From: an uncultured bacterium
GTDB lineage: Bacteria; Patescibacteriota; Patescibacteriia; Patescibacteriales; UBA12465
Length of the DNA stretch: 64,000 nt
Reading direction: 5' to 3'
Assembly: GCA_942492765.1 (NCBI GenBank)
Contig: OW818634.1
Coordinates: forward strand, 6,627 to 70,626
A program made the translations under genes and the position numbers. A model generated the notes under the pieces. It was not told the DNA's origin. It made no database searches and saw nothing but the letters and a program-made list of their open reading frames with translations. Positions within the stretch are counted from its first letter, which is position 1; each line of letters begins with the position of its first letter. Positions 1 to 55,359 of this stretch are shown here, piece by piece.

Positions 1-1565
1 CGGAGCCGATCGCCACTTCGACTAAGGAGTCTATCATAGCTGCTTACTTGAAACGCTTAGATAAGCCGGGCGACGTCTATGAGCCGCTCGAAGGCAAGAA
101 GATCGACACGGATAAGCTCTTATCTCTCTTCGCTTATCTAGGCAGCGCTACTTCCACCCCCCTGACGGCTGCTAATCTAGAATTGAAGAACGGCAAAGTC
201 TTGATAAAAGCAACTCCTGGTTCCGTCGCCTCGACGACGGCCACGCAATTGAAGATACCTGGACTGAGCTTTGATTTGCAGAGCTTCCGGTATTATCCGG
301 AAAACGAGATTGCTGCGCACGTTTTGGGGTTCGTCAGTTATTCTAATGATGAAGGCAACGGCAAATATGGATTGGAAGAATTTTTTAATGATGAATTGTT
401 CGGAAAATACGGTTCTCTCAAATCGGAAAAAGGCGGGCAGGGCAGCGTCATCATCGTTAATGATCGCGAATACGTGCCGCCGGTGGCTGGATCTGATCTA
501 GTCTTAACGCTTGATCGCAACGTGGAGTTCACTGCCTGCGAGAAGCTTAAGGAAGCGGTTAAGAAGCATGGCGCCGATGGCGGCTCAGTTATCGTCATCA
601 ATCCTAAGACCGGAGCAATCATCGCGATGTGTTCGCTTCCAGATTTCAACCCGAATAATTACAAGGATGTTTCCGACATCAGCGTCTATAATAATCCGGC
701 CCTATTCAATCAGTATGAGCCGGGTTCGGTTTTCAAGACCGTAACCATGTCCATCGCTATCGATCAAGGAAAAGTCTCTCCGGCGACGACCTATAAGGAT
801 GAGGGGCAGATCATGATCAACGGCTGGCCTAAGCCGATCAGGAATTCCGATTTTTCCACTAAAGGAGCCCATGGCATCGTCGATATGAATTTTGTCTTGG
901 AAAATTCTTTGAATACCGGCGCGATCTTCGCGATGCGCCAAGCCGGACCTAAGGTCTTCGCCAGTTACGTTAAGGATTACGGTTTCGGTGAAAAGACCGG
1001 CATTGAACTGGAAGGGGAAGCGGCTGGCAGCATCGGCAATCTCTTATCCAGCAAGGTCAGGGAGATCGATGCGGCCACTACCTCTTTCGGCCAAGGCCTT
1101 TCCGTTACGCCGTTGCAGATGGTCATGTCTTATCAAGCTATCGCCAATAAAGGCGTCATGATGAAGCCTTATATAGTCCAGGCGATCATCAGGGATGGCA
1201 AGCGGGAAGAGATGATCCCGAAGCAGCTGCGCCAAGTCATCAGCTCTAAGACGGCGGCGACTATCTCCGCCATGCTCGTTAATGTCGTCGAGAATGGCCA
1301 CTCTAAGCGCGCTTATATCGACGGTTATTATATCGGCGGCAAGACCGGCACGGCTCAGGTGGCTGTCAATGGCGGATATAGCACTGACAAGTATATCCAT
1401 ACTTTCATCGGCATCGCTCCGATTGACGAACCGGCCTTTGTCATGCTAACTAAGATAGATGCTCCGAGGGATGTCGAGTTCGCCGAAGGGTCGGCTTTGC
1501 CTCTTTGGACAGAGATAGCTGATTTCATGCTGAAGTATTACCAGGTCCCGAAAACTAGAAAATAA
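1..1565 (+). CDS. Penicillin-binding protein 2 / FtsI-type peptidoglycan transpeptidase; 5' end truncated by the window edge (the frame is open back to nt 3, and the first in-frame start in the window is a TTG at 48).
   Basis: Transpeptidase motifs are present in the translation: SxxK (SVFK), SxN (SLN) and KTG(T) (GGKTGTAQ). The gene sits immediately upstream of a Mur ligase, which is the classic ftsI-mur order. Confidence 0.8.
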   Translation, partial: EPIATSTKESIIAAYLKRLDKPGDVYEPLEGKKIDTDKLLSLFAYLGSATSTPLTAANLELKNGKVLIKATPGSVASTTATQLKIPGLSFDLQSFRYYPENEIAAHVLGFVSYSNDEGNGKYGLEEFFNDELFGKYGSLKSEKGGQGSVIIVNDREYVPPVAGSDLVLTLDRNVEFTACEKLKEAVKKHGADGGSVIVINPKTGAIIAMCSLPDFNPNNYKDVSDISVYNNPALFNQYEPGSVFKTVTMSIAIDQGKVSPATTYKDEGQIMINGWPKPIRNSDFSTKGAHGIVDMNFVLENSLNTGAIFAMRQAGPKVFASYVKDYGFGEKTGIELEGEAAGSIGNLLSSKVREIDAATTSFGQGLSVTPLQMVMSYQAIANKGVMMKPYIVQAIIRDGKREEMIPKQLRQVISSKTAATISAMLVNVVENGHSKRAYIDGYYIGGKTGTAQVAVNGGYSTDKYIHTFIGIAPIDEPAFVMLTKIDAPRDVEFAEGSALPLWTEIADFMLKYYQVPKTRK

Positions 1566-46114: not shown

Positions 46115-46639
46115 ATGAGTCATGAAATAGAAATGGAAAAAACTTATTTGGCAAAATTTTTGCCGGAAGGCTTGAAAGACTGTCGGTCGAAAGAGATACT
46201 TGATATCTATGTCCCCAAAGGCAGCGCTCACGCCAAATTGAGAATAAGAAAGAGCGGTGAGACTTATACTATCACCAAAAAGAATCCGGTCGGCGCCAGC
46301 GCCTCTATTCAGAATGAAGAAAATATCGCCATCCTGCCGGAAGAATTCGAAGCTTTTGCCGGCATGGACGGAAACAGGATGCGGAAGATAAGATATTATT
46401 ATCCTTATCAAGGATTGACGGCCGAAATTGACGTTTTTCTGGAACAGCTGGAAGGATTGGTCTTGGTCGACTTTGAATTCAATGAAGAGAAAAAACTCAA
46501 TGATTTTATCATGCCTGATTTCTGCCTAGCCGATGTCACGGAGGAAGAAGAGATAGCCGGCGGAGTCTTATGCCATCACTCATTCGCCTCTCTTGAAGAG
46601 ATGCTCGAGAGGTTCTCTTATAAGAAGATTTCTCTATGA
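46115..46639 (+). CDS. CYTH-like domain protein (triphosphate tunnel metalloenzyme; class IV adenylate cyclase or thiamine triphosphatase fold)
   Basis: The N-terminal HEIEMEKTYLAKFLP matches the CYTH ExExK signature. Acidic EID/DFEF strands occur near the C-terminus, and the protein is about 174 aa. Confidence 0.55.
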   Translation: MSHEIEMEKTYLAKFLPEGLKDCRSKEILDIYVPKGSAHAKLRIRKSGETYTITKKNPVGASASIQNEENIAILPEEFEAFAGMDGNRMRKIRYYYPYQGLTAEIDVFLEQLEGLVLVDFEFNEEKKLNDFIMPDFCLADVTEEEEIAGGVLCHHSFASLEEMLERFSYKKISL

Positions 46640-47748
46640 ATCATCTTAAGATAAGAGAATTAAGACTGGTCATGACCGGCGATTGTCCTTATAGTTGCCG
46701 CTATTGCAATCTCTATCATAAAAAATTATTAGAATCCGGCCGCCTGTCCCGACACCGCTTCGATAAAGAATATCGGATCGGGAATGAAAGCTTCGGGTTG
46801 CTGGCGGATAATAGCGGTCCGGCCTTTTCTCTGAAAGACTATGAATTTCTGTTCTTAATTTTGTCTTCGAGGTTCGGGCTCGAAGACATAACCTTTACCG
46901 GCGGAGATCCTTTTTTGAATCCTGATATCCGTAAAGTTATCGATTCCGCTGATAAGATGGGGGTGCGGACTACCGCCATCACCAAGGGGGCTCCCTTATT
47001 CGCGATCAAGAGCCGGCGTGACGCCAAGAAAAGATTGGGTAATCTTTCTAGAATAATCTTTTCTCTTGATACTTTTGACGCGAAAGAGCACACCAAGAAT
47101 AATCTGCCGCTTCTGAAGACCGAGATAGCTATCGGTTTTTTGCCGAAGACTCTGAGATTGATTGAAGCACTGGCGGGCTACGGCTATAATATCGAGATTA
47201 ACTCTGTCATCAAGCCCGGCTCGCTCGCTTCTAAAAAAAGTCTGGGCCGGGTTATGGCCAGAATCAGGCAGATGGTAGATTTTTGTTTGAAAAATAAAAT
47301 AAAGAAAGTGAAGTTTCTCGAGCTGGATTCCAAGGATACGCTGGGCGCACCTTATATAGAGGATCATTTTCGGGTCATGATAGCCGCCGGCCTGTTCGCC
47401 GGTTTGAAATTTCAGCCCAGCCGTTTACCGGTTGACTATAAGAAGGGGGCCGTCAGGATAGGCCGGGTCGCCAGAGAGGCAAGTAGGAGTCATGATATGC
47501 ATATCATGGCGTATCGGACGCATTGTCCCACGACTTTTCTGAATAGGCGCGGCCGGAAAAAATGCGAGTTTTCTCAAGGGGGCGAATTGCATCTTGATTT
47601 CAAGGGCAGGTCTTTCCTGTGCCAGCGCGATAATCATTTTAAATCGATCGATATCTTTGATGCCGTGAAAAGTCGGAATATAAAGGAACTAGCTAGCCGG
47701 CTTCGGGAGATAAAAGAAGCGGTCAGGGATCAGAAATGTAAGTTTTAA
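46636..47748 (+). CDS. Radical SAM enzyme (MoaA/BtrN-like) with an additional C-terminal Cys-rich region (possible auxiliary cluster)
   Basis: CPYSCRYC (CxxxCxxC) is at residues 16-23, followed by the GGDPFL SAM-binding motif and SLDTFD. C-terminal cysteines are at HCPTT, KKCEF and FLCQRD. The ATGA overlap with the CYTH gene indicates translational coupling. Confidence 0.7.
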   Translation: MNHLKIRELRLVMTGDCPYSCRYCNLYHKKLLESGRLSRHRFDKEYRIGNESFGLLADNSGPAFSLKDYEFLFLILSSRFGLEDITFTGGDPFLNPDIRKVIDSADKMGVRTTAITKGAPLFAIKSRRDAKKRLGNLSRIIFSLDTFDAKEHTKNNLPLLKTEIAIGFLPKTLRLIEALAGYGYNIEINSVIKPGSLASKKSLGRVMARIRQMVDFCLKNKIKKVKFLELDSKDTLGAPYIEDHFRVMIAAGLFAGLKFQPSRLPVDYKKGAVRIGRVAREASRSHDMHIMAYRTHCPTTFLNRRGRKKCEFSQGGELHLDFKGRSFLCQRDNHFKSIDIFDAVKSRNIKELASRLREIKEAVRDQKCKF

Positions 47749-47752
47749 TCAT

Positions 47753-48982
47753 ATGAAGTCAAAACGAAAAGATAAATCATATAAATTCGTCTGGCCTAAG
47801 ATAAATAAGAAGATAGAGCAAGCGGTCTTAAAGCAATTAAGGACGTCTATCTCGATATATGACGGCGGCGGGATATTGCGAGAATTTGAAAAGAAATTCG
47901 CGGTTTATCATGGTCAAGAATTTGCTGTGCTTTGCAATTCTGGGACGACAGCAATCCATTCCATGTTCGTCGCTGCCGACCTGAAAGTTGGTGACGAAGT
48001 TATCTGTCCGGCTTATACGTTTTTCGCGACCGTGACTCCGCTCCTGTTCACTGGGGCAAAGCCGATTCTTTGCGATTGCGACGAAAATGGGAATATCGAC
48101 CCGAAGGAAATCGCTAAGAAGATTACCAGAAGAACCAAAGCGGTGGTTGTGACGCATATGTGGGGAATACCCGCCGAGATGGATAAGATAGTCTCTATCT
48201 GCCGTAAGAATAAATTGTTATTGCTGGAGGATTGTTCGCATGCTCATGGCGCAACTTATAAGAACAAAATAGTCGGCTCCTTCGGTAATATTTCTGCTTG
48301 GAGCTTGCAGGGAGCCAAGATCATAACCGGAGGCGAAGGCGGAATCATGACGACGAATAATAGAGCTTTTTTTGAGAGGGCCCTGCTGCTCGGGCATTAT
48401 AATAAGAGATGCCGCCAAGAGATGGATGCTAAGGGCGATCTATACCAATATACTCATTCCGGCATGGGGTTGAAATACAGAGCCCATCCTCTAGCTATCG
48501 TCATTGCTGATAAGCTATTTGATGACTTGAAAATAACTTCGAGGTTCCGAAGCAAATACGCCGCCTCATTAATCAGAGACTTGAGGAAAATCGGTTCTAT
48601 CGGCTTGCCGCCAGCTTATTTTGATAAGAATTTGAAGCCTTCCTGGTATTCTTTCATTTTCTTTTTGAAAAATGGTTCAGCCGTCGCCCCGTATCTTAGA
48701 GATATTTTAGATAGATTCAAGAGTGCCGGCTTGGTTGATATTGATAAACCAGATTCAACGATTCCCCTGAACTTATTGCCTCTTTTTCAGAATCCGGCTA
48801 AGCTGTTCCCATCTTATGGGAGTCGAGTTTCTCACTTTGCTTACCGTCCAGGAGACTTTCCTAAAGCCGAAAGTTTTTATCGATCTGTCCTGAAGATGCC
48901 GGTCGGAGTTGACCAGTCGGACGAGCGGCTCGTGAATATTTATAAAAAGGGAATCAAGGATATCCTGTCTCCTCTCGGATGA
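47753..48982 (+). CDS. DegT/DnrJ/EryC1/StrS-family PLP-dependent aminotransferase (sugar aminotransferase/dehydratase type)
   Basis: Fold-type I AT motifs typical of the DegT family: FAVLCNSGTTA, ICPAYTFFATV, and the PLP-lysine context SLQGAKIITGGEGG. Confidence 0.75.
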   Translation: MKSKRKDKSYKFVWPKINKKIEQAVLKQLRTSISIYDGGGILREFEKKFAVYHGQEFAVLCNSGTTAIHSMFVAADLKVGDEVICPAYTFFATVTPLLFTGAKPILCDCDENGNIDPKEIAKKITRRTKAVVVTHMWGIPAEMDKIVSICRKNKLLLLEDCSHAHGATYKNKIVGSFGNISAWSLQGAKIITGGEGGIMTTNNRAFFERALLLGHYNKRCRQEMDAKGDLYQYTHSGMGLKYRAHPLAIVIADKLFDDLKITSRFRSKYAASLIRDLRKIGSIGLPPAYFDKNLKPSWYSFIFFLKNGSAVAPYLRDILDRFKSAGLVDIDKPDSTIPLNLLPLFQNPAKLFPSYGSRVSHFAYRPGDFPKAESFYRSVLKMPVGVDQSDERLVNIYKKGIKDILSPLG

Positions 48983-49003
48983 TGAATTTTATCAGCGCTA
49001 ATG

Positions 49004-49032
49004 AAAAAGGACCATTGTTTAATGGTCCTTTA
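49004..49032. terminator. Bidirectional terminator hairpin (aggaccatt-gttt-aatggtcct) between the convergent DegT and GreA-like genes
   Basis: A perfect 9-bp inverted repeat flanked by A-runs and T-runs. Confidence 0.65.
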
Positions 49033-49636
49033 ATTTTATAATTTTGTTCTTTCCTCCGATAATTTTTTGCGCCAAAGGAGACGCATAGGATAATTCATTG
49101 TCGGAAAAAGTAATGAAGCTGCCTATCTTCTTTTTGATAGTGCCGCCGTCTTCTGTCTCGATCCATACTTCGCTGCCGATCCCGACATGTTCCTGGAGAC
49201 CATCGCTCTTTATTATTTTGGCATTTTCTTGAAAGCGTTCGAGCTCTCTGAGATAGTCTACCCACATTTTTTTCTGGCGCGTCCCTTCTTCGTAGTCGAA
49301 GTTATCGTGAAAAGTCTCTGACTCCGAACAGCTTTCCCCGATCTCTTCACCCAATCTCCTAATCTCTTCCCGAATCTTATTTATCTTTCCTAGTAATAGG
49401 AGATAATCAGGTTCAGTAAAGAAATATCTTATTTTAGCGGCTCGATGAGCATTTTTATGTCTTTTTGTCTGAAAAGGAATCGGCTGTTTTTCGGGGACTG
49501 GCTTAGTAGCTGACATGGAAGAAGGAGTGGTCGGAAGCTTACGAATGGTTTTCCTGTCCAAGAGATCGATTATCTCTTTTTCCGGAATGCTGAATTTCGT
49601 GCTGATCTTTTTGATAGCTATTTCTTTTTCCATTGC
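49019..49636 (-). CDS. GreA/GreB-like transcription elongation factor homolog with a unique N-terminal extension. The start is reassigned to the internal Met (MEKEIAIKK); the ORF-track start at 49726 would overlap the upstream paralog.
   Basis: The C-terminal 140 aa parallel GreA: NFDYEEGTRQK resembles NAEYHAAREQQ, and LSYASPLAQKIIGGK resembles ISVNSPIARGLIGK. The proposed N-terminus MEKEIAIKKISTKFSIPEKEIIDLL aligns with the neighbour's MELKESEIDKISKKFKVPKKDILDFL. Confidence 0.6.
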   Translation of the reverse strand, partial: AMEKEIAIKKISTKFSIPEKEIIDLLDRKTIRKLPTTPSSMSATKPVPEKQPIPFQTKRHKNAHRAAKIRYFFTEPDYLLLLGKINKIREEIRRLGEEIGESCSESETFHDNFDYEEGTRQKKMWVDYLRELERFQENAKIIKSDGLQEHVGIGSEVWIETEDGGTIKKKIGSFITFSDNELSYASPLAQKIIGGKNKIIKLKDH

Positions 49637-49637
49637 T

Positions 49638-50108
49638 TCAATTATTATATTTTTTGATAATCTTCTTGATGCCGGCTTTATGCTCGTCGCTGTCTTTAGT
49701 GGCATGAGATATGGCTTCGCGGACATCTTCCAGGGAATCAGCCCCCTCTATCCAGATTTTGATGAATCTTTTTTTTAGGTCTTCATCTCCGACGAGGCAT
49801 AAATAGACATCTCTCTTTTCCTTATAGCCTCGGCATAACCGTAACCAATTTTCGAAGAATTCTGCCGGGATATTTTCAGGTTCTAGGATGACGTAGATTT
49901 CTTCGTAGTCATGAAAGCTTTTGCAGCTCTTTAGCCAATTCTTAAGGATTTCGGCTCTGCCGATAGCGCTATCATTCTCAAGGAATGATCTTTTTAGGGA
50001 AAGAAAGCGTTCGATTCGCTCTTCCTCAATCAGAAAATCTAAGATATCTTTTTTAGGCACCTTGAATTTCTTGCTGATCTTGTCTATTTCAGATTCTTTT
50101 AGTTCCAT
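49638..50108 (-). CDS. Hypothetical protein (156 aa) sharing the N-terminal ~30-aa motif with the downstream GreA-like gene
   Basis: See the N-terminal alignment above. The rest has no recognisable motif. Confidence 0.45.
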   Translation of the reverse strand: MELKESEIDKISKKFKVPKKDILDFLIEEERIERFLSLKRSFLENDSAIGRAEILKNWLKSCKSFHDYEEIYVILEPENIPAEFFENWLRLCRGYKEKRDVYLCLVGDEDLKKRFIKIWIEGADSLEDVREAISHATKDSDEHKAGIKKIIKKYNN

Positions 50109-50185
50109 CTTTTCCGATTTATAATGTTAATGTCCGATTTTCTAATAATATTAATACGTTTTTTGATAAATGTCAACTTCATTAA

Positions 50186-50258: not shown

Positions 50259-51413
50259 ATGCAAGTATATCTAGATAACGCCGCCACGACGCGGCTAGAT
50301 GAGCGGGTTCTGGCCAAAATGAAGCCCTATTTGACGACTAAATACGCCAACCCCTCGTCTATCCATCTTCCGGGGCAAGAGGCCTTCCTAGACCTGTCTA
50401 AGGCGCGCCAGACAGTCGCCAAGATTATCGGCGGGGAAGCAGAGAGCGTCATATTTACTGCTAGCGCTACCGAAGCTAATAATTTCATCATCAAGGGCGT
50501 AGCTCGAGCTAATCGGACCGAAAAGAAGAATAAGATTATTGTTTCTGCCATCGAGCATCCTTGCGTGCGCGAGTCGGCTTTGGAATTAGAAAGGGAAGGC
50601 TTTAAAGTTGAATTCATTCCGGCCGATCACGAGGGCATCATCGCTCTGGCGGCTTTGGAGAAATTAATTGATGATTCTACGATTCTGGTTTCGGTCATGG
50701 CAGTCAATAACGAGATCGGAACTATCCAGGATATCGCGGCGCTAGCTAAGATCGCTCATAAGCATGGCGCTTATTTCCATAGCGACGCGGTTCAGGCCGT
50801 CCCGTATCTGAAGCTCGACGTCAAGAAGATGGGCCTTGATTTCCTAACCTTATCCGCGCATAAGTTCTACGGGCCTAAGGGCGTCGGCTTGGCTTATATC
50901 AATCGCAAGATTAAGATTCGTCCGCTCATCGTCGGCGGCGGCCAAGAGGATGGTTATCGCTCCGGTACTTATAATCTTCCTGGTATCATCGGTCTCACGG
51001 CCGCTTTGGAATTAGCTTATAAGGAAAGAACGGCTTATCTGAAGAAGGTGACGGCGCTGCGCGATTATTTCTGGAAGAGCATCAAGAGAGAGATTCCGGA
51101 AGTGAAGTTGAACGGCAGCCTAACCAAGCGCGTTCCGGCCAATCTCAATATCATGTTCGGCTATATCGAAGGGGAGGCTATCCTGATCGACCTGTCTTTC
51201 AAGGGCATCCATGTTTCGACCGGTTCGGCTTGCTCGGCGACTAACCTGAAATCCTCTCATATCTTGCGCGCTATCGGCTTAGAAAAGAATTTCTTGAACA
51301 GCAATATCCGTTTTTCTTTCGGACGCTATAATACGAAGGCGGAAATAGACTACACGATCAAGCGCCTGAAAGAGACAGTTAAGAGGTTGCGAAGTTTTTC
51401 CCCGGTTGTCTAG
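50259..51413 (+). CDS. iscS: Cysteine desulfurase (IscS/NifS class V aminotransferase)
   Basis: The PLP-lysine region LSAHKFYGPKGVG and a catalytic Cys loop SGSACS are present. Confidence 0.85.
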   Translation: MQVYLDNAATTRLDERVLAKMKPYLTTKYANPSSIHLPGQEAFLDLSKARQTVAKIIGGEAESVIFTASATEANNFIIKGVARANRTEKKNKIIVSAIEHPCVRESALELEREGFKVEFIPADHEGIIALAALEKLIDDSTILVSVMAVNNEIGTIQDIAALAKIAHKHGAYFHSDAVQAVPYLKLDVKKMGLDFLTLSAHKFYGPKGVGLAYINRKIKIRPLIVGGGQEDGYRSGTYNLPGIIGLTAALELAYKERTAYLKKVTALRDYFWKSIKREIPEVKLNGSLTKRVPANLNIMFGYIEGEAILIDLSFKGIHVSTGSACSATNLKSSHILRAIGLEKNFLNSNIRFSFGRYNTKAEIDYTIKRLKETVKRLRSFSPVV

Positions 51414-51453
51414 CCCACTCAAAATATTTGTGGATTTTGTTTTATCTCATAAA

Positions 51454-51480
51454 AATAGGCCGAATAAGCCTATTTTTGTT
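51454..51480 (+). terminator. Terminator hairpin (ataggc-cgaataa-gcctat followed by a T-run) after iscS
   Basis: A 6-bp stem followed by tttttgtttg. Confidence 0.55.
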
Positions 51481-51482
51481 TG

Positions 51483-51511
51483 TTGACAAATAGCTATAAA
51501 TATGCTAATAT
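51483..51511 (+). promoter_or_regulatory. Near-consensus sigma-70 promoter (ttgaca, 17 nt spacer, taatat) with a ~140 nt leader before the ATG at 51657
   Basis: Hexamers read from the sequence. Confidence 0.5.
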
Positions 51512-51656
51512 ATCATCATTCCTAAAGCTTGGAATTATGGGGTAAGACAATATCCTGAATGGCCAGTAGCAAGGCGCAAGCCAATCCGTTTTCTAGCAAC
51601 GACCCGCTAGAATAGTCCCCAGTGGTGCCGGGACGATAAGCAAGCACTTTAAAAAT

Positions 51657-52430
51657 ATGTTACTAATTATTTTGATGTCTCCCTATATCATAGGGATATC
51701 AGCTATTCTATCTTTCGGAATAGTCTTTGGGCTTTTAGCTATTTTTGGGCCTAAAAAAAAGAAGGCTATCAAAGAGGTTCTGGAAAAAGAAGAAACTTCC
51801 CCCGTCGACCCTGGAGATTATAAGGTCGATGAATTCGAGAAGAATGTTTTTATCAGCGAGAGGCATAGCGGCCTGAGGATCAGGATTATGTCGGTTTATT
51901 CCGGCAGGAAAAGAAATCCTGACCAGCTGATATTCTCCATGTCTTGGCCGCATAGCTTTAATGCTGCCAAAGCTCACGCTATGTACGCTCTTATGCCGGG
52001 ATTAGCTGAGATTGATTTTAACGATCGCCATAGCCTGACGATCACGAAATCTCCGGCCGCTAAATTCAGCGACCTGGAAGATCCTATCCTGAGAGCCTTG
52101 TTCTCTCATCTCCATCGCGAGCATGGCCTGAGATTAGAAAAGCAGTCTATAATTTTAGTCCGAGAACCGGATCCTAATGTTATGTTTCTTAATTTCAAGG
52201 TTGAAACCGATAAGCTGATCCTGCTCGGAAAGATGCTAGTGCTCCTTGAGGGCATAGTCAAGCCGGAAAATGGCATTCCTGAAGGGATGGATATGCCGGG
52301 AAAATACGCCTTTTCTATCCAGAAGGCCGAGGCTTTCGAGTGGGCAGAATTGATGCCTAAGATAAAACGGACTCTCACGAGCTTTTTCCCCGAAGGCATA
52401 GAAATCGTTCCTATGGAAATAGAATTCTAA
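51657..52430 (+). CDS. Hypothetical protein with an N-terminal TM helix (257 aa), inserted between iscS and iscU
   Basis: An ORF with a hydrophobic N-terminus and no recognisable motifs. Confidence 0.4.
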   Translation: MLLIILMSPYIIGISAILSFGIVFGLLAIFGPKKKKAIKEVLEKEETSPVDPGDYKVDEFEKNVFISERHSGLRIRIMSVYSGRKRNPDQLIFSMSWPHSFNAAKAHAMYALMPGLAEIDFNDRHSLTITKSPAAKFSDLEDPILRALFSHLHREHGLRLEKQSIILVREPDPNVMFLNFKVETDKLILLGKMLVLLEGIVKPENGIPEGMDMPGKYAFSIQKAEAFEWAELMPKIKRTLTSFFPEGIEIVPMEIEF

Positions 52431-52491
52431 GAAAAATAACTTTGTTCCTCTAAATGAAGCCCCGGTCGTCAGACTAGGGCTTTTTCATTGG

Positions 52492-52520
52492 TTGACATTT
52501 GTCTAAAGTTGATATAAAAT
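52492..52520 (+). promoter_or_regulatory. Promoter for the iscU-like gene (ttgaca, 17 nt spacer, taaaat)
   Basis: Read from the sequence. It is preceded by a weak terminator hairpin at about 52457-52486. Confidence 0.45.
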
Positions 52521-52549
52521 ATTACTTATGTCAAATTAATTAAAAATAT

Positions 52550-53020
52550 ATGGCTCTTAATTATACCAAGAAAACTATTAATCACTTTTTGAAGCCGCAG
52601 AATATCGGCAAGATCGCTAAGCCGGACGGCTATGCGCAGATCGGCAATATGGTCTGCGGCGACCAGCTTGATTTCTTCTTGAAAGTCGAGAAGGGAAAGA
52701 TCAAGGACGTGAAGTTCTTGTCTTTCGGCTGCGCTTCCAATATCGCGACAGCCTCGCTTTTGACTGAAAAAGTCAAAGGCCTGACCGTCGACCAGGCTAA
52801 GAAATATAATTGGAAACAGGTTGTCGAAGAGTTGGGCGGTTTGCCTAACCAGAAGATCCATTGCTCGGTCATGGCTGTCCAAGGCTTACAGAAAGCCATT
52901 GCCGATTATGAGAAGAGAAGCGAGGGCATAGCGAAAAAACCCACGGCGAAAAAGAAGCTCGTGATCGTCAAGAAACCCGTGGCTAAGAAGCCGGCTCCTA
53001 AGAAGAAAACAAAAAAATAA
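52550..53020 (+). CDS. iscU: IscU/NifU-like Fe-S cluster scaffold with a lysine-rich C-terminal tail
   Basis: Three conserved Cys contexts are present (NMVCGDQ, FGCASN, HCS), with a C-terminus of KKPTAKKKLVIVKKPVAKKPAPKKKTKK. Confidence 0.75.
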   Translation: MALNYTKKTINHFLKPQNIGKIAKPDGYAQIGNMVCGDQLDFFLKVEKGKIKDVKFLSFGCASNIATASLLTEKVKGLTVDQAKKYNWKQVVEELGGLPNQKIHCSVMAVQGLQKAIADYEKRSEGIAKKPTAKKKLVIVKKPVAKKPAPKKKTKK

Positions 53021-53513: not shown

Positions 53514-54272
53514 TTAGGAGATATTCACCTTAACACCCTGGCTCATGGACGAAGAAATGCTGATATTCTTGATGAAGCTGCCCTTAGAAGAGGCTGGTTT
53601 GGCCTTCTTAACGACATCGAGCAGAGTCTGGTAATTATCGACTAATTTTTTAGTGTCGAAGCTGACTTTGCCGATGACGGTGTGGACATTGGCAGTATCG
53701 TCATTCTTGAAGCTGATTTTTCCTTTCTTCAATTCTTCGACGGTCTTAGCTGGGTTGGTCGTGACCGTGTCGTTCTTCGGGGAAGGCATCAGGCCTCTAG
53801 TTCCTAATATCTTGGCGATGACGGCTAGATTTTTCATCAAAGCCGGTTCAGCGATAGCGACCTGGAAATCAGTCTTTTCAGTCTTCTTGATTTCGTTGAT
53901 CAACTCTTCGCCACCGACGAAATCAGCGCCCGCCGCTTTGACGGCCTTCTCGTTCTCCGGAGAGACGAAGGCTGCGACTTTGACGGTCTTGCCAGTGCCG
54001 TGAGGCAGGCTGACAGCGCCGCGAACTTGCTGGTCGCCTTTCTTGGTATTGATACCGAGGCGGAAATGAACTTCGACGGAAGCGTCGAATTTAGTCTTGC
54101 TGATCTTCTTAACGATCTCAAGAGCTTCTTCCGGAGAATAAGCCTTCAAGCGGTCGTAGACAGCGGAGTGATCCGCTTTCTTGACAGCCTTAACTTTCTT
54201 CACGGTCTCTTTCTTGCCTTTGGCGGCTTTCGGAGCCGCTTCTTTCTTTTCTGCTTTTTCAGTCTTTGCCAT
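53514..54272 (-). CDS. rplA: 50S ribosomal protein L1 with a lysine-rich N-terminal extension
   Basis: L1 core motifs are present (GTGKTVKVAAF..., LMPSPKNDTVT), and the gene sits in the rplK-rplA position. Confidence 0.85.
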   Translation of the reverse strand: MAKTEKAEKKEAAPKAAKGKKETVKKVKAVKKADHSAVYDRLKAYSPEEALEIVKKISKTKFDASVEVHFRLGINTKKGDQQVRGAVSLPHGTGKTVKVAAFVSPENEKAVKAAGADFVGGEELINEIKKTEKTDFQVAIAEPALMKNLAVIAKILGTRGLMPSPKNDTVTTNPAKTVEELKKGKISFKNDDTANVHTVIGKVSFDTKKLVDNYQTLLDVVKKAKPASSKGSFIKNISISSSMSQGVKVNIS

Positions 54273-54328
54273 AGTTTTATTTCGTGGTCAGACGCTTGGG
54301 TGAGCCAAGCTCCCACAATTATAATTAA

Positions 54329-54751
54329 TTATTTAATTTCTACTCCCATCTGGCGGGCAGTGCCAGCGATGATATTCTTAGCCGCCTCTAAGTCATTAGC
54401 ATTCAGGTCAGGCATCTTCATCTTAGCGATCTCTTCGAGCTGGGCCGGGCTGATCTTGCCGACTTTTTCAGTCAGCGGTTTGCCAGAACCTTTCTTGATG
54501 CCGGCAGCCTTCTTGATGAGCTCAGAAGCCGGAGGGGTCTTCAGGATGAAATCATAGCTGCGATCCTCATAGACGGTAATCTCTACCGGGATGATATCGC
54601 CAGCCTTGTCCTTAGTCTTATCGTTGAATTCTTTACAGAATTGGGCGATATTCAAGCCGTGCTGGCCTAAGGCCGGACCGACTGGAGGGGCTGGGTTAGC
54701 GCCTGCTCCCGGAATCTGTAATTTGATCTTGGTTTTTATTTTCTTAGCCAT
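54329..54751 (-). CDS. rplK: 50S ribosomal protein L11
   Basis: The L11 N-terminus is [24 protein letters not shown]. Confidence 0.9.
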
Positions 54752-54813
54752 ATTATTATTTTAGTTGGAGCGTTAGAAGCCCGCTCATTATGTTAATCCT
54801 GAATAGTCAGGAA

Positions 54814-55359
54814 TTATACCTTCTTGATCTGTAAGAAATCGAGTTCGACCGGCGTTTCGCGTCCGAACATCGAGACGGAAACTTTGACTTTGCCCTTAGC
54901 TTCGTCAATCGCGGTGATCTTGCCTTCCATGTTCTTGAACGGCCCCTCGTTGATCCTGACCGGAGTGCCGACGGCGACATCGATCTGGAACTTAGGTTCT
55001 TCGACGCCCATTCTTTTCTGCAGCGCCTTGACCTCGGTATCGCTGATCGGGGTCGGGATGGTGCCCGTGCCGATAAAGCCGGTGACGTTCGGGGTGTTTC
55101 TGACGATATACCAGGATTCATCCGTCACTTCCATCTCTACGAGGATGTAGCCGGGGAAGATCTTTTCTTCCGTGACTTTGCGCTTGCCGTTCTTGATCTT
55201 GATCTTCTTCTCGGTCGGGATGAGGATATTGAAAATCTTATCTTCCATATCCAGAGATTCGACTCTCTGCTTCAAGTTTTGGGCGACGTTTTCTTCGTAG
55301 CCGGAATAGGTATGGATGACATACCAGCGGCGGCCTTGATTTAAAAGTTGCTTGGCCAT
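54814..55359 (-). CDS. nusG: Transcription termination/antitermination factor NusG
   Basis: The NGN domain begins WYVIHTYSGYEENV, there is a KOW motif near the C-terminus, and the gene is in the secE-nusG order. Confidence 0.85.
   Translation of the reverse strand: MAKQLLNQGRRWYVIHTYSGYEENVAQNLKQRVESLDMEDKIFNILIPTEKKIKIKNGKRKVTEEKIFPGYILVEMEVTDESWYIVRNTPNVTGFIGTGTIPTPISDTEVKALQKRMGVEEPKFQIDVAVGTPVRINEGPFKNMEGKITAIDEAKGKVKVSVSMFGRETPVELDFLQIKKV

Follow-up and report, generated by a model that had tools for sequence, protein, structure and literature searches.

Two adjacent minus-strand genes of an uncultured member of the Patescibacteriota begin with closely similar protein sequences and then part ways. 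Why should two neighbours have the start of their products in common and nothing else? A first-pass annotation of the locus described nearly superimposable N-termini of ~30 aa, took the genes for tandem paralogs, and suggested a domain-shuffled regulatory pair, for example a Gre-like factor together with a partner or a competitor that docks by way of the same module. We have analysed the pair in the 64,000-nucleotide stretch of DNA in which it lies (hereafter, the window) and in homologous loci of other MAGs. The product of the upstream gene is referred to below as the partner, and that of the downstream gene as the Gre-like protein.

Layout of the locus and start of the Gre-like gene

The features of the locus are collected in Table 1. 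The long reading frame of the Gre-like gene covers 49019–49726. A start at 49726 would overlap the partner gene by 89 nt, as had been calculated correctly, and an internal Met yields the 204-aa product instead. This internal start had been placed at 49636; read from the sequence, the ATG is at 49633–49631, 4 nt beyond the TGA stop codon of the partner gene (49640–49638). We reject the long version, since the frames of relatives are closed just upstream of the Met: in four loci (L001, L003, L007 and L031) the stop-to-stop frame opens just one to four codons before the equivalent position. The NCBI product is 204 aa long as well, and the extension would run over the conserved C-terminus of the partner. 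All Gre-like homologues except one have M-[ED]-[KR] as the N-terminus at the equivalent Met.

A promoter-like site lies ~40 nt 5' of the partner ATG, and the consensus scan detected no minus-strand site of this kind between the two genes. At the other end, a terminator hairpin (-14.5 kcal/mol, z = -3.6; equal stability in 0 of 200 shuffles) overlaps the Gre-like stop codon and separates the Gre-like gene from the DegT gene that converges on it; the terminator scan picked up the same hairpin on the opposite strand. The best explanation for these predicted signals is a compact two-gene operon that runs from the promoter-like site through the partner gene, the 4-nt spacer and the Gre-like gene to the terminator.

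Table 1. Positions in the window of the genes, protein segments and predicted signals of the locus.
Feature	Position	Strand	Evidence
Promoter-like site, TTGACA-17 nt-TAATAT	50148..50176	minus	Consensus scan, 10/12; pattern match only
Partner gene, 156 aa	49638..50108	minus	ORF; identical to NCBI protein P0017
Module in partner, residues 5-28, ESEIDKISKKFKVPKKDILDFLIE	50025..50096	minus	hhalign, HMM cross-matches, AF2
Partner body, residues 45-156	49641..49976	minus	Alignment; helical hairpins
Gre-like gene, 204 aa + stop	49019..49633	minus	ORF, internal ATG; 100% identical to P0001 (NCBI), full length
Module in Gre-like protein, residues 1-26, MEKEIAIKKISTKFSIPEKEIIDLLD	49556..49633	minus	AF2, alignment, homology to partner module
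Disordered basic linker, residues 27-69	49427..49555	minus	pLDDT 42-59, no secondary structure
Antiparallel coiled coil	49226..49426	minus	AF2; superposes on GreA, GreB, Gfh1
Coiled-coil tip, S101-C-S-E-S-E106-T-F-H-D110	49304..49333	minus	Invariant columns; HMMER alignment to 4wqt
Gre C-terminal (FKBP-like) domain, residues 137-204	49022..49225	minus	Alignment
Terminator hairpin	49001..49031	minus	11-bp stem, AAAC loop, U-run; RNA fold

A short N-terminal module common to both proteins

Sequence comparison identifies a two-helix N-terminal module of ~25-28 aa that is homologous between the partner and the Gre-like protein. In BLASTP the two proteins match at E = 1e-5, with the similarity limited to the N-terminus, where 13 of 28 aligned residues are identical in the window. 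When the two family alignments are compared by hhalign, the sole match spans 28 columns (probability 91%, E = 1e-6), and the modules alone reach a probability of 97% and E = 1.8e-11. An HMM built from Gre-like N-termini recovers partner N-termini at seven further loci, with E values between 4e-7 and 1e-3, and all of its matches with E<0.007 among 2549 six-frame ORFs are Gre-like or partner proteins; the window's own partner is matched at E = 2.6 only. The reverse HMM, built from partner N-termini, matches the window's Gre-like protein at 2.8e-5. The cross-family module score averages 33, versus -18 ± 12 for shuffled modules. BLASTP, hhalign, HMM and shuffle test thus agree on the N-terminal similarity that had been pointed out from the sequence alone, and its statistical significance is borne out. 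The label of tandem paralogs holds for these ~28 residues and fails for the remainder: hhalign gives the 28-column N-terminal match and nothing else, and the bodies are unrelated.

The module follows the pattern h-x2-I-[SA]-x2-[FL]-x-[IV]-[PS]-x3-[IL]-x2-L. AF2 models it in the partner as a helix (residues 5-15), a turn and the first part of a long helix (19-44), and in the Gre-like protein as helices 2-14 and 18-26 (pLDDT 82-88). The alignment has it in all full-length Gre-like homologues. It ranks among the best-conserved parts of both proteins, its amino-acid pattern being kept in genomes of 26-47% GC while the adjoining linker varies freely, and the surface residues K-K-I-S-x-K-F-x-I-P-E are common to both families across very divergent genomes.

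What kind of element is this? No curated family matches it above threshold, and at most three of 27 modules match any one family. Small motifs of the IF2_N type (PF04760) resemble it in consisting of two short helices with the module's pattern. Two modules match IF2_N (best E = 4e-5, 19.8 bits versus a cut-off of 25.3), and matches to HTH models are likewise sub-threshold. In contrast to HTH/IF2_N-type motifs, the module has two helices only, and the second is acidic, not basic, which makes DNA recognition unlikely; overall the helices are acidic to neutral. A signal peptide is rejected as well, the module being amphipathic, charged and modelled by AF2 as a helix hairpin. Nor is it a diverged copy of the repeat in the partner body ('repeat complementation'), given an hhalign probability below 1% for module versus body. 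An RNA-level element behind the similarity is unlikely, with no Rfam match, only 63% nucleotide identity in the window, and an amino-acid pattern that persists from 26% to 47% GC. The shared motif had been proposed for a search elsewhere in the genome; the search covered the 64-kb window and detected no third copy there.

That the two modules evolve in concert, or through gene conversion, was rejected: module similarity is 33.15 within genomes and 33.15 between genomes (permutation p = 0.5 for 13 pairs, a weak test). This equality also means that co-variation gives no sign of direct contact between the modules.

The downstream gene encodes a divergent member of the Gre family

The downstream gene had been recognised as encoding a GreA/GreB coiled coil and an FKBP-like domain, and NCBIfam, PDB profiles and Foldseek agree with this assignment. 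The NCBIfam greA model TIGR01462 matches the window protein at 4e-8; PDB profile matches are to a GreA/Gfh1 chimera, GreA, GreB and Gfh1 (E from 1e-7 to 5e-5); and the structural model, with an overall AF2 pLDDT of only 73, retrieves GreA, GreB and Gfh1 in Foldseek at a probability of 1.0 (TM 0.64-0.67, rmsd 2.7-3.1 Å); the superpositions on these factors span 126-136 columns at rmsd 2.7-3.4 Å. Besides the coiled coil, the model contains a beta-domain. The protein consists of the module, a basic disordered linker of ~40 aa, the coiled coil and the Gre C-terminal domain. In the 15 homologues that we aligned, the linker is poorly conserved in sequence and keeps its composition (29-43 aa, net charge +4 to +10).

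The coiled coil is of GreA-like length, with a short strand (70-73) followed by helices 74-100 and 110-136 (helix pLDDT 90-94). This sets the protein apart from Rnk, the coiled coil of which is markedly shorter than in Gre factors (PMC4598747): in the Gre-like protein its helices account for 27+27 residues, and full-length GreA/GreB can be superposed on it. In NCBIfam, the model for nucleoside diphosphate kinase regulators matches neither the window protein nor its homologues P0003 and L034.

A tip devoid of acidic residues, together with a better match to another FKBP-like family, would have spoken against a Gre assignment; neither applies, as the acidic tip is kept and the body is that of the Gre family. 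Residues E106, D110, C102 and H109 are invariant in 16 aligned Gre-like sequences, and in the homologue from L030 position 106 is occupied by K and 102 by V. In the HMMER alignment with 4wqt, the GreA/Gfh1 chimera, E106 and D110 fall opposite the two acidic residues of its tip, the Gre-like loop being one residue longer, and MAFFT sets E106 one column away from D41. D110 forms the N-terminus of the second coiled-coil helix in the AF2 model. We consider E106 and D110 a candidate catalytic acidic pair.

In its C-terminal domain the window copy carries an in-frame deletion of ~15 aa relative to all full-length homologues, and the Gre-like family profile aligns over positions 1-191 of 212 only. 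Because these residues are missing, the window protein has no Pfam match at E≤1. The full-length homologues P0003, P0011 and L034 score 30.8, 28.1 and 43.1 bits, respectively, with PF01272 (cut-off 26.9). In the light of the deletion and the sub-threshold Pfam score, the window's Gre-like copy may be impaired.

How does the protein compare with known members of the family? It is like GreA and GreB (PDB 1grj, 2p4v, 6rin) in the antiparallel coiled coil, the acidic tip and the FKBP-like C-terminal domain, and the sequence matches to these two have E from 1e-7 to 1e-6. However, it falls well short of GreA/GreB orthologue scores: against cut-offs of 139-188 for the NCBIfam equivalogs TIGR01462, TIGR01461 and NF0012xx, the window protein reaches 33 bits and its homologues 44-57, and Pfam GreA_GreB_N (PF03449) matches none of the module-bearing members scanned. 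The tip reads S-C-S-E-S-E-T-F-H-D-N-F-D-Y-E-E where GreA/GreB have G-D-L-S-E-N-A-E-Y, and its loop is longer, with an invariant Cys and His. The N-terminal extension of ~70 residues (module and basic linker) is additional to the GreA/GreB architecture, as is the dedicated upstream partner gene, and canonical GreA co-occurs in at least one relative. The Gre-like protein is predicted to bind the secondary channel of RNA polymerase.

The Thermus/Deinococcus protein Gfh1 and Rv3788 of M. tuberculosis are comparable in being lineage-restricted paralogues that accompany GreA and have the same fold and an acidic tip. Both belong to other phyla and lack the N-terminal module and linker, and the Gre-like protein is no closer to them in sequence than to GreA. 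We know of no co-encoded partner for either. Gfh1 and Rv3788 co-occur with GreA and inhibit RNA polymerase, and a protein with an acidic tip may lack cleavage activity, Gfh1 being an example (PMC4598747).

A precedent for an N-terminally extended Gre body is provided by the fusions NF004969/PRK06330 (718 aa, 'transcript cleavage factor/unknown domain fusion protein') and NF011309/PRK14720 (906 aa), with weak matches confined to the Gre body at the C-terminal end of these models (profile positions 541-718 and 747-901; 15-46 bits versus cut-offs of 697-714). Their extensions comprise 550-750 residues of other domains, as opposed to a 26-aa module and a 40-aa linker, and, unlike in these fusions, the Gre-like module recurs on a separate neighbouring protein. 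The closest relatives of the Gre body are short Gre-like proteins of the 'WHDNF' type (L010-L029), encoded by Patescibacteria and by other MAGs. These have the tip motif H-D-N-F-[DGS]-[YF]-E-E in common with it and pass PF01272, but are ~150-170 aa long, have no module, linker or upstream partner, and mostly lack the tip-loop Cys. A literature search returned no description of a module, linker and Gre architecture with a partner.

The partner is a small helical protein

The upstream gene had been credited with an unrelated, Cys-containing body, and this is what we find: Cys62 and Cys104 are conserved. The partner has 23 homologues of 151-162 aa, none of them named and none with Pfam matches, and its family is small (26 clusters among 1.84 billion representatives). 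A metagenome scan with the partner profile added a single locus, L030, likewise a pair. The AF2 model is all-helical, with nine helices (pLDDT 93.4, pTM 0.81). The body has the recurring pattern W-x3-[C/S/A]...E-x-Y, and C62, W88, Y95, E97 and W119 are invariant. Self-similarity within the 156-aa partner is weak (E = 0.065); the partner profile matches longer proteins (P0052, P0053 and P0055) in two to six repeated stretches. Two of these, P0053 (304 aa) and P0055 (229 aa), begin with the module, and P0053 has no adjoining Gre gene. For the module or the W-repeat of these three proteins, the search for a named family gave sub-threshold scatter only.

We detected no family for the partner in Pfam, NCBIfam, PHROG or PADLOC; the best Pfam match, Mad3_BUB1_I, lies below the cut-off (E = 0.0055, 17 bits versus 31.4). 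Its sequence profile finds nothing significant in the PDB (E≥0.29), and Foldseek gives no significant fold relative (best E = 0.23 in the PDB and 0.38 in BFVD), the best neighbours being TPR proteins, 14-3-3 and designed helical repeats. The partner resembles helical-repeat adaptors of the TPR/HAT type in its all-helical hairpins and recurring W...E..Y pattern, and its profile weakly matches a generic TPR protein in L009. It differs from TPR and other helical-repeat families in that no Pfam, PDB-chain or BFVD match is significant. The best explanation is a previously undescribed family of small, compact helical-repeat (TPR-like) proteins.

Conservation of the two-gene unit

The partner gene stands directly 5' of a module-bearing Gre-like gene at each of the 13 distinct loci that we examined (the window, L001, L003, L004, L006-L009, L030, L031, L034, L037 and L039), and four further pairs are inferred from contigs of identical length. 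The order, partner then Gre-like, is constant, and the spacer measures -1 to +17 nt in all loci except one, where it is 111 nt. Paired loci range from 26% to 47% GC, so the conservation is at the protein level. Even partner relatives as remote as E = 5e-7 retain the pairing, whereas the partner gene is absent at 20 of 20 loci with short, module-less WHDNF-type Gre relatives. The proposal of a pair thus comes out strengthened, and the conserved pairing suggests a Gre-like RNA polymerase factor with its own dedicated partner.

At L004, L038 and L039, as in the window, a convergent gene for a DegT aminotransferase adjoins the pair. In most loci the flanks vary (thymidylate kinase, NUDIX, S2/EF-Ts and others) and the pair stays intact. 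In L001, a canonical GreA with both Pfam domains (N and C) is encoded 4.4 kb from the pair. The cassette families are limited to a narrow set of related MAGs. We rejected a phage or defence origin: PHROG and PADLOC gave no family, and IMG/VR contigs gave no relative.

Discussion

The reading that we favour, with a probability of roughly 0.45, is that the shared module unites the two bicistronic products within a cassette made up of a Gre-like paralogue of GreA and a helical partner. The product of the second gene is a divergent GreA paralogue. Its coiled coil would reach via the secondary channel towards the active site of RNA polymerase, and the Gre C-terminal domain would keep the protein anchored at the rim of this channel. 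In contrast to ordinary Gre factors, it has a basic disordered tether of ~40 residues, which carries the two-helix module at the N-terminus. Both proteins would be translated from one mRNA and joined through the module as a docking element, in the simplest case with two module hairpins packing into a four-helix bundle. The partner, tethered just outside the channel, could then serve the Gre-like factor as an adaptor or as a regulator. Since longer members that stand alone carry the module as well, it appears to have its origin in the helical-repeat family; most likely the Gre paralogue acquired it from the neighbouring gene. We infer that the module would either associate the partner with the Gre-like protein or bring the two to one RNA polymerase site. 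The putative effect on RNA polymerase could be activating or inhibitory. Several observations count against this reading: the missing co-variation signal, the C-terminal deletion in the window copy, the Lys at position 106 and Val at 102 in L030, the low NCBIfam scores of all members, the 111-nt spacer of one locus, the acidic to neutral module helices that match no curated family above threshold, and the overall pLDDT of only 73 for the Gre-like model.

That the module docks both proteins on one third-party site, for example on the surface of RNA polymerase or on another transcription protein, with the partner competing with the tethered factor or handing over to it and no heterodimer being formed, is possible, though we would hesitate to call it probable. 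Both families retain the same module surface residues even between very divergent genomes, and there is no same-genome co-variation, as would be expected of a conserved external target. Proteins made up of module and repeat also stand alone, with no Gre neighbour, which indicates that the module is used independently of the Gre-like protein. However, the analysis turned up no candidate target, genes that are so strictly adjacent and so tightly coupled in translation more typically encode the subunits of one complex, and a homotypic, self-complementary interface would likewise keep the copies alike. A link without any functional coupling is very unlikely in our view: the module would then be left over from the 5' end of the upstream gene, after its partial duplication or fusion, or be a common localisation or sorting tag, and adjacency would reflect lineage synteny. 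The partly conserved flanks, with DegT aminotransferase at the window and three other loci, and the restriction of the family to a narrow set of related MAGs would fit. Yet a relic would decay, and the module is highly conserved while the linker drifts across 26-47% GC; most flanks differ around an intact pair; and a signal peptide is rejected, as set out above.

It also seems unlikely, if conceivable, that the Gre-like protein is a channel-occupying inhibitor of the Gfh1/Rv3788 type, with the partner neutralising or licensing it in a stress-switch or toxin-antitoxin-like logic. The co-occurrence of canonical GreA in L001 parallels that of GreA with Gfh1 and Rv3788, and Gfh1 shows that an acidic tip need not mean cleavage (PMC4598747). 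The Gfh1 PDB profile matches as well as the GreA ones, and the tip loop S-C-S-E-S-E-T-F-H-D, with its invariant Cys and His, is longer than usual and unusual. Against this, cleavage-stimulating and inhibitory Gre paralogues look alike in sequence, and the pair bears no PADLOC or toxin-antitoxin signature. An inhibitory role concerns only the sign of the activity and fits either docking model.

To our knowledge, no Gre factor or paralogue has a dedicated protein partner. Only tentatively do we propose that the Gre-like protein is the first Gre-type secondary-channel factor with a dedicated co-translated partner, that the two dock homotypically through their two-helix modules, that the partner, tethered at the channel mouth by the 40-residue basic linker, gates entry of the coiled coil into RNA polymerase or recruits the factor to particular complexes, and that the cassette provides lineage-specific elongation control in reduced Patescibacteria genomes. 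Patescibacteria with reduced genomes are, as far as we know, uncultivated, and experimental knowledge of their transcription is almost nil.

Even without a functional link, the locus is a clean case of a 25-residue module common to neighbouring genes. Regulation of Gre factors and their paralogues is generally attributed to their abundance, to competition for the secondary channel, to pH or to small molecules (PMC4598747). If our reading is true, the cassette would add a new control over access to the polymerase active site, an orphan helical-repeat family would gain a function, and genome-reduced Patescibacteria would be seen to retain and elaborate control of transcription elongation.

Gene layout and surroundings

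The partner and Gre-like genes are minus-strand neighbours in head-to-tail order. The first-pass annotation had placed the start of the Gre-like gene at 49636; this is 3 nt off the ATG that we read there, which follows the TGA stop of the partner after 4 nt. The 204-aa product of this ATG matches a protein in an NCBI record end to end at 100% identity, and the contig of that record also encodes a match to the partner. M-[ED]-[KR] begins all but one of the Gre-like homologues at this position, and in several relatives the frame is open for only 1-4 codons 5' of the equivalent start. The long start at 49726 is therefore an artefact, an open frame overlapping the conserved C-terminus of the partner. 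There is no promoter-like site between the two genes, and the Gre-like stop codon lies inside a terminator hairpin. Anatomically, the two genes are a bicistronic operon.

Features of the window and of the Gre-like protein
Feature	Position	Strand	Details
Partner ORF	49638..50108	minus	156 aa
Second ORF (Gre-like)	49019..49726	minus	internal ATG 49633-49631
Promoter-like site TTGACA-17-TAATAT	~40 nt upstream of partner	minus	pattern match
Hairpin, 11 bp and U-run	overlaps Gre-like stop codon	minus	-14.5 kcal/mol, z = -3.6
C-terminal-domain deletion region, Gre-like protein	49022-49090	minus	against all full-length homologues
Two short helices	Gre-like residues 2-14 and 18-26		AF2
Unstructured stretch	Gre-like residues 27-69		AF2
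Antiparallel coiled coil	Gre-like residues 74-100 and 110-136		AF2, pLDDT 90-94
Tip loop	Gre-like residues 101-109		AF2
Beta-rich C-terminal domain	Gre-like protein		AF2
Rhs/Tc-toxin-like ORF	29660-37132	plus	2490 aa; SpvB, TcdB_toxin_midN, FG-GAP, RHS-repeat, CBM_4_9 domains
Radical-SAM and DegT/DnrJ/EryC1 aminotransferase genes	46636-48982	plus	converge on Gre-like gene
NifS-like cysteine desulfurase, 257-aa protein, NifU_N scaffold protein	50259-53020	plus	257-aa protein with weak Nfu_N-like C-terminus
nusG-rplK-rplA cluster	53514-55359	minus	~4 kb from pair

The convergent DegT neighbour recurs beside the pair in three other loci (L004, L038 and L039/L040), accompanied by a radical-SAM gene in L038, and could reflect lineage synteny or a functional neighbourhood. 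The NifS-like, 257-aa-protein and NifU_N genes are transcribed divergently from the promoter region of the partner. The Rhs/Tc-toxin-like giant protein is notable for a contig of ~0.9 Mb. Scans of all 64 kb detected neither a tRNA nor an Rfam family.

The downstream gene encodes a divergent Gre-family factor

The NCBIfam greA model aligns to residues 109-195 of the Gre-like protein at E = 4e-8, though its 33 bits fall short of the 139-bit cut-off, and a profile of 16 homologues retrieves the GreA/Gfh1 chimera 4wqt, GreA (1grj), GreB (2p4v) and Gfh1 from the PDB at 1e-7 to 5e-5. The five-part AF2 model (pLDDT 73) matches GreA, GreB and Gfh1 in Foldseek with probability 1.0, TM 0.64-0.67 and rmsd 2.7-3.1 Å. 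These searches bear out the GreA-like body recognized in the first-pass annotation, as a divergent member of the Gre family. The protein shares fold and tip with the Gre superfamily, and its homologues also share the Pfam C-terminal domain, but it is an orthologue of neither GreA nor GreB; it differs from Rnk, since its coiled coil is full length, and from known long Gre fusions, where the match is limited to their Gre part.

The tip reads S-C-S-E-S-E106-T-F-H-D110-N-F-D-Y-E-E, and all 16 sequences share E97, G99, S101, C102, E106, T107, H109, D110, N111, F112, E115, E116, R119 and Q120; in a further homologue, from L030, residue 106 is K and residue 102 is V. Loss of the acidic tip had been named as evidence against a GreA-like domain; HMMER aligns E106 and D110 with both tip acidic residues of the 4wqt chimera, the Gre-like loop being one residue longer, so the acidic tip is retained. 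The linker, 29-43 aa long, lacks sequence conservation but is always basic (net charge +4 to +10), and could contact nucleic acid.

Several Patescibacteria loci hold a pair of Gre-family genes only a few kb apart (L010 6305-6802, L011 6302-6799 and L018 1557-2033, all minus strand). Since even the Gre protein passing both Pfam Gre domains has a W-H-D-N tip there, not the classical S-E-N, the H-D-N tip could be characteristic of the lineage.

The window's copy has undergone an in-frame deletion of ~15 C-terminal-domain residues that are present in every full-length homologue. It has no Pfam match, whereas homologues exceed the PF01272 gathering score. Only 36 nt separate the Gre-like stop from the end of the convergent DegT gene, so no remnant of the deleted segment is left.

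A homologous N-terminal module on unrelated bodies

The similarity first seen between the two N-termini is real. BLASTP aligns the partner with the Gre-like protein at E = 1e-5, confined to the N-terminus, and comparing the two family alignments profile to profile yields one 28-column match only (probability 91%, E = 1e-6), or 97% and 1.8e-11 for the modules alone. An HMM built only from Gre-like N-termini recovers partner N-termini from seven further loci (E = 4e-7 to 1e-3), and all of its matches below E = 0.007 among 2549 ORFs are Gre-like or partner ORFs; the window's own partner reaches only E = 2.6, and the reciprocal HMM of partner N-termini retrieves the Gre-like protein of the window (2.8e-5). 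Between the two families, module scores average 33 versus -18 ± 12 for shuffled modules. The bodies are unrelated, as had been proposed for that of the upstream gene, so the initial description as tandem paralogs fits the module only. A search for the motif elsewhere gave no third copy in the window, and no curated family matches the module. Profile comparison ruled out that it is a diverged copy of the repeat in the partner body. Its second helix is acidic, which makes DNA recognition by the module unlikely.

The partner is a new family with no curated match

The 23 partner homologues (151-162 aa) are named solely as 'hypothetical protein' and contain no Pfam domains; NCBIfam, PHROG and PADLOC hold no family for the partner, and a profile run exhaustively against 1.84 billion representative proteins yields only 26 members. 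Its AF2 model, of very high confidence (pLDDT 93.4, pTM 0.81), has nine helices. Fold searches returned no significant match in the PDB (best E = 0.23, to TPR, 14-3-3 and designed repeats) or BFVD (best E = 0.38), nor did a sequence-profile search of the PDB. A W-x3-[C/S/A]...E-x-Y hairpin pattern recurs in the body; self-similarity within the 156 aa is weak (E = 0.065), and the partner profile matches three longer, distant relatives, P0052 (953 aa), P0053 and P0055, in 2-6 repeated stretches.

These relatives (P0053 at L033 3001-3915, P0055 at L036 826-1515) carry long arrays of ~33-aa 'F..W[ML]..[SA]....ER' helical repeats, which match no Pfam family and may be an undescribed repeat class. 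P0053 and P0055 open with the same module, and no Gre gene lies beside P0053, which suggests that the module originally belonged to the repeat family and that the Gre paralogue gained it.

Conservation of the pair

In every inspectable locus with a module-bearing Gre-like gene (the window, L001, L003, L004, L006, L007, L008, L009, L030, L031/L032, L034, L037/L038 and L039/L040) the partner lies directly upstream on the same strand, with spacers of -1 to +17 nt and one exception of 111 nt; contigs of identical length for both proteins point to four further pairs. The pairing is kept with partner relatives as remote as E = 5e-7 and over loci of 26-47% GC, and flanking genes vary in most pair loci. 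Short Gre relatives (~150-170 aa) lacking the module, found in 20 loci, have the H-D-N-F-x-[YF]-E-E tip in common and no partner gene. In L001 a canonical GreA is encoded 4.4 kb away from the pair, which makes the module-bearing protein an additional paralogue. There is good support for the pair as a unit of evolution; its mechanism is a proposal.

The closest full-length relatives come from records labelled Patescibacteria. More divergent pairs occur in L008 (CAZFEF010000001.1) and L009 (CAZJSQ010000002.1), MAGs labelled 'uncultured Gammaproteobacteria', and L037/L038 resemble them.

Proposed mechanism

Gre factors place their C-terminal domain on the rim of the RNA polymerase secondary channel and extend the coiled-coil tip to the active site (PMC4598747). 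By homology, the Gre-like body would bind this rim through its C-terminal domain, the coiled coil would insert, and the acidic tip would reach the active site. The N-terminus of the Gre coiled coil sits at the channel entrance, so the basic linker and module would project outside RNA polymerase. The presence of an identical module on a compact, co-translated helical-repeat protein and the strict co-occurrence of the two are most readily explained if the module brings the Gre-like protein and its partner together, either directly or on a common site.

We favour direct association of the two proteins, most simply through a four-helix bundle built from the two helix hairpins, and put this reading, variants included, at a probability of about 0.45. 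Same-genome co-variation of the two modules is absent, which does not favour direct contact; the test is weak, however, and a homotypic interface would likewise keep both module copies alike. Docking of the two proteins on a shared third site, where they would compete or hand over, seems to us somewhat less likely than direct association. The Gre-like factor could stimulate cleavage like GreA or inhibit like Gfh1 and Rv3788, two activities that cannot be told apart from sequence; inhibition is a conceivable reading in view of the unusual tip, in which a Cys and a His are invariant, and of the occurrence alongside GreA.

We found no description in the literature of a Gre paralogue bearing a short module on a disordered tether together with a co-encoded, module-bearing partner. 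What is new here is an undescribed partner protein that accompanies a Gre-type paralogue.
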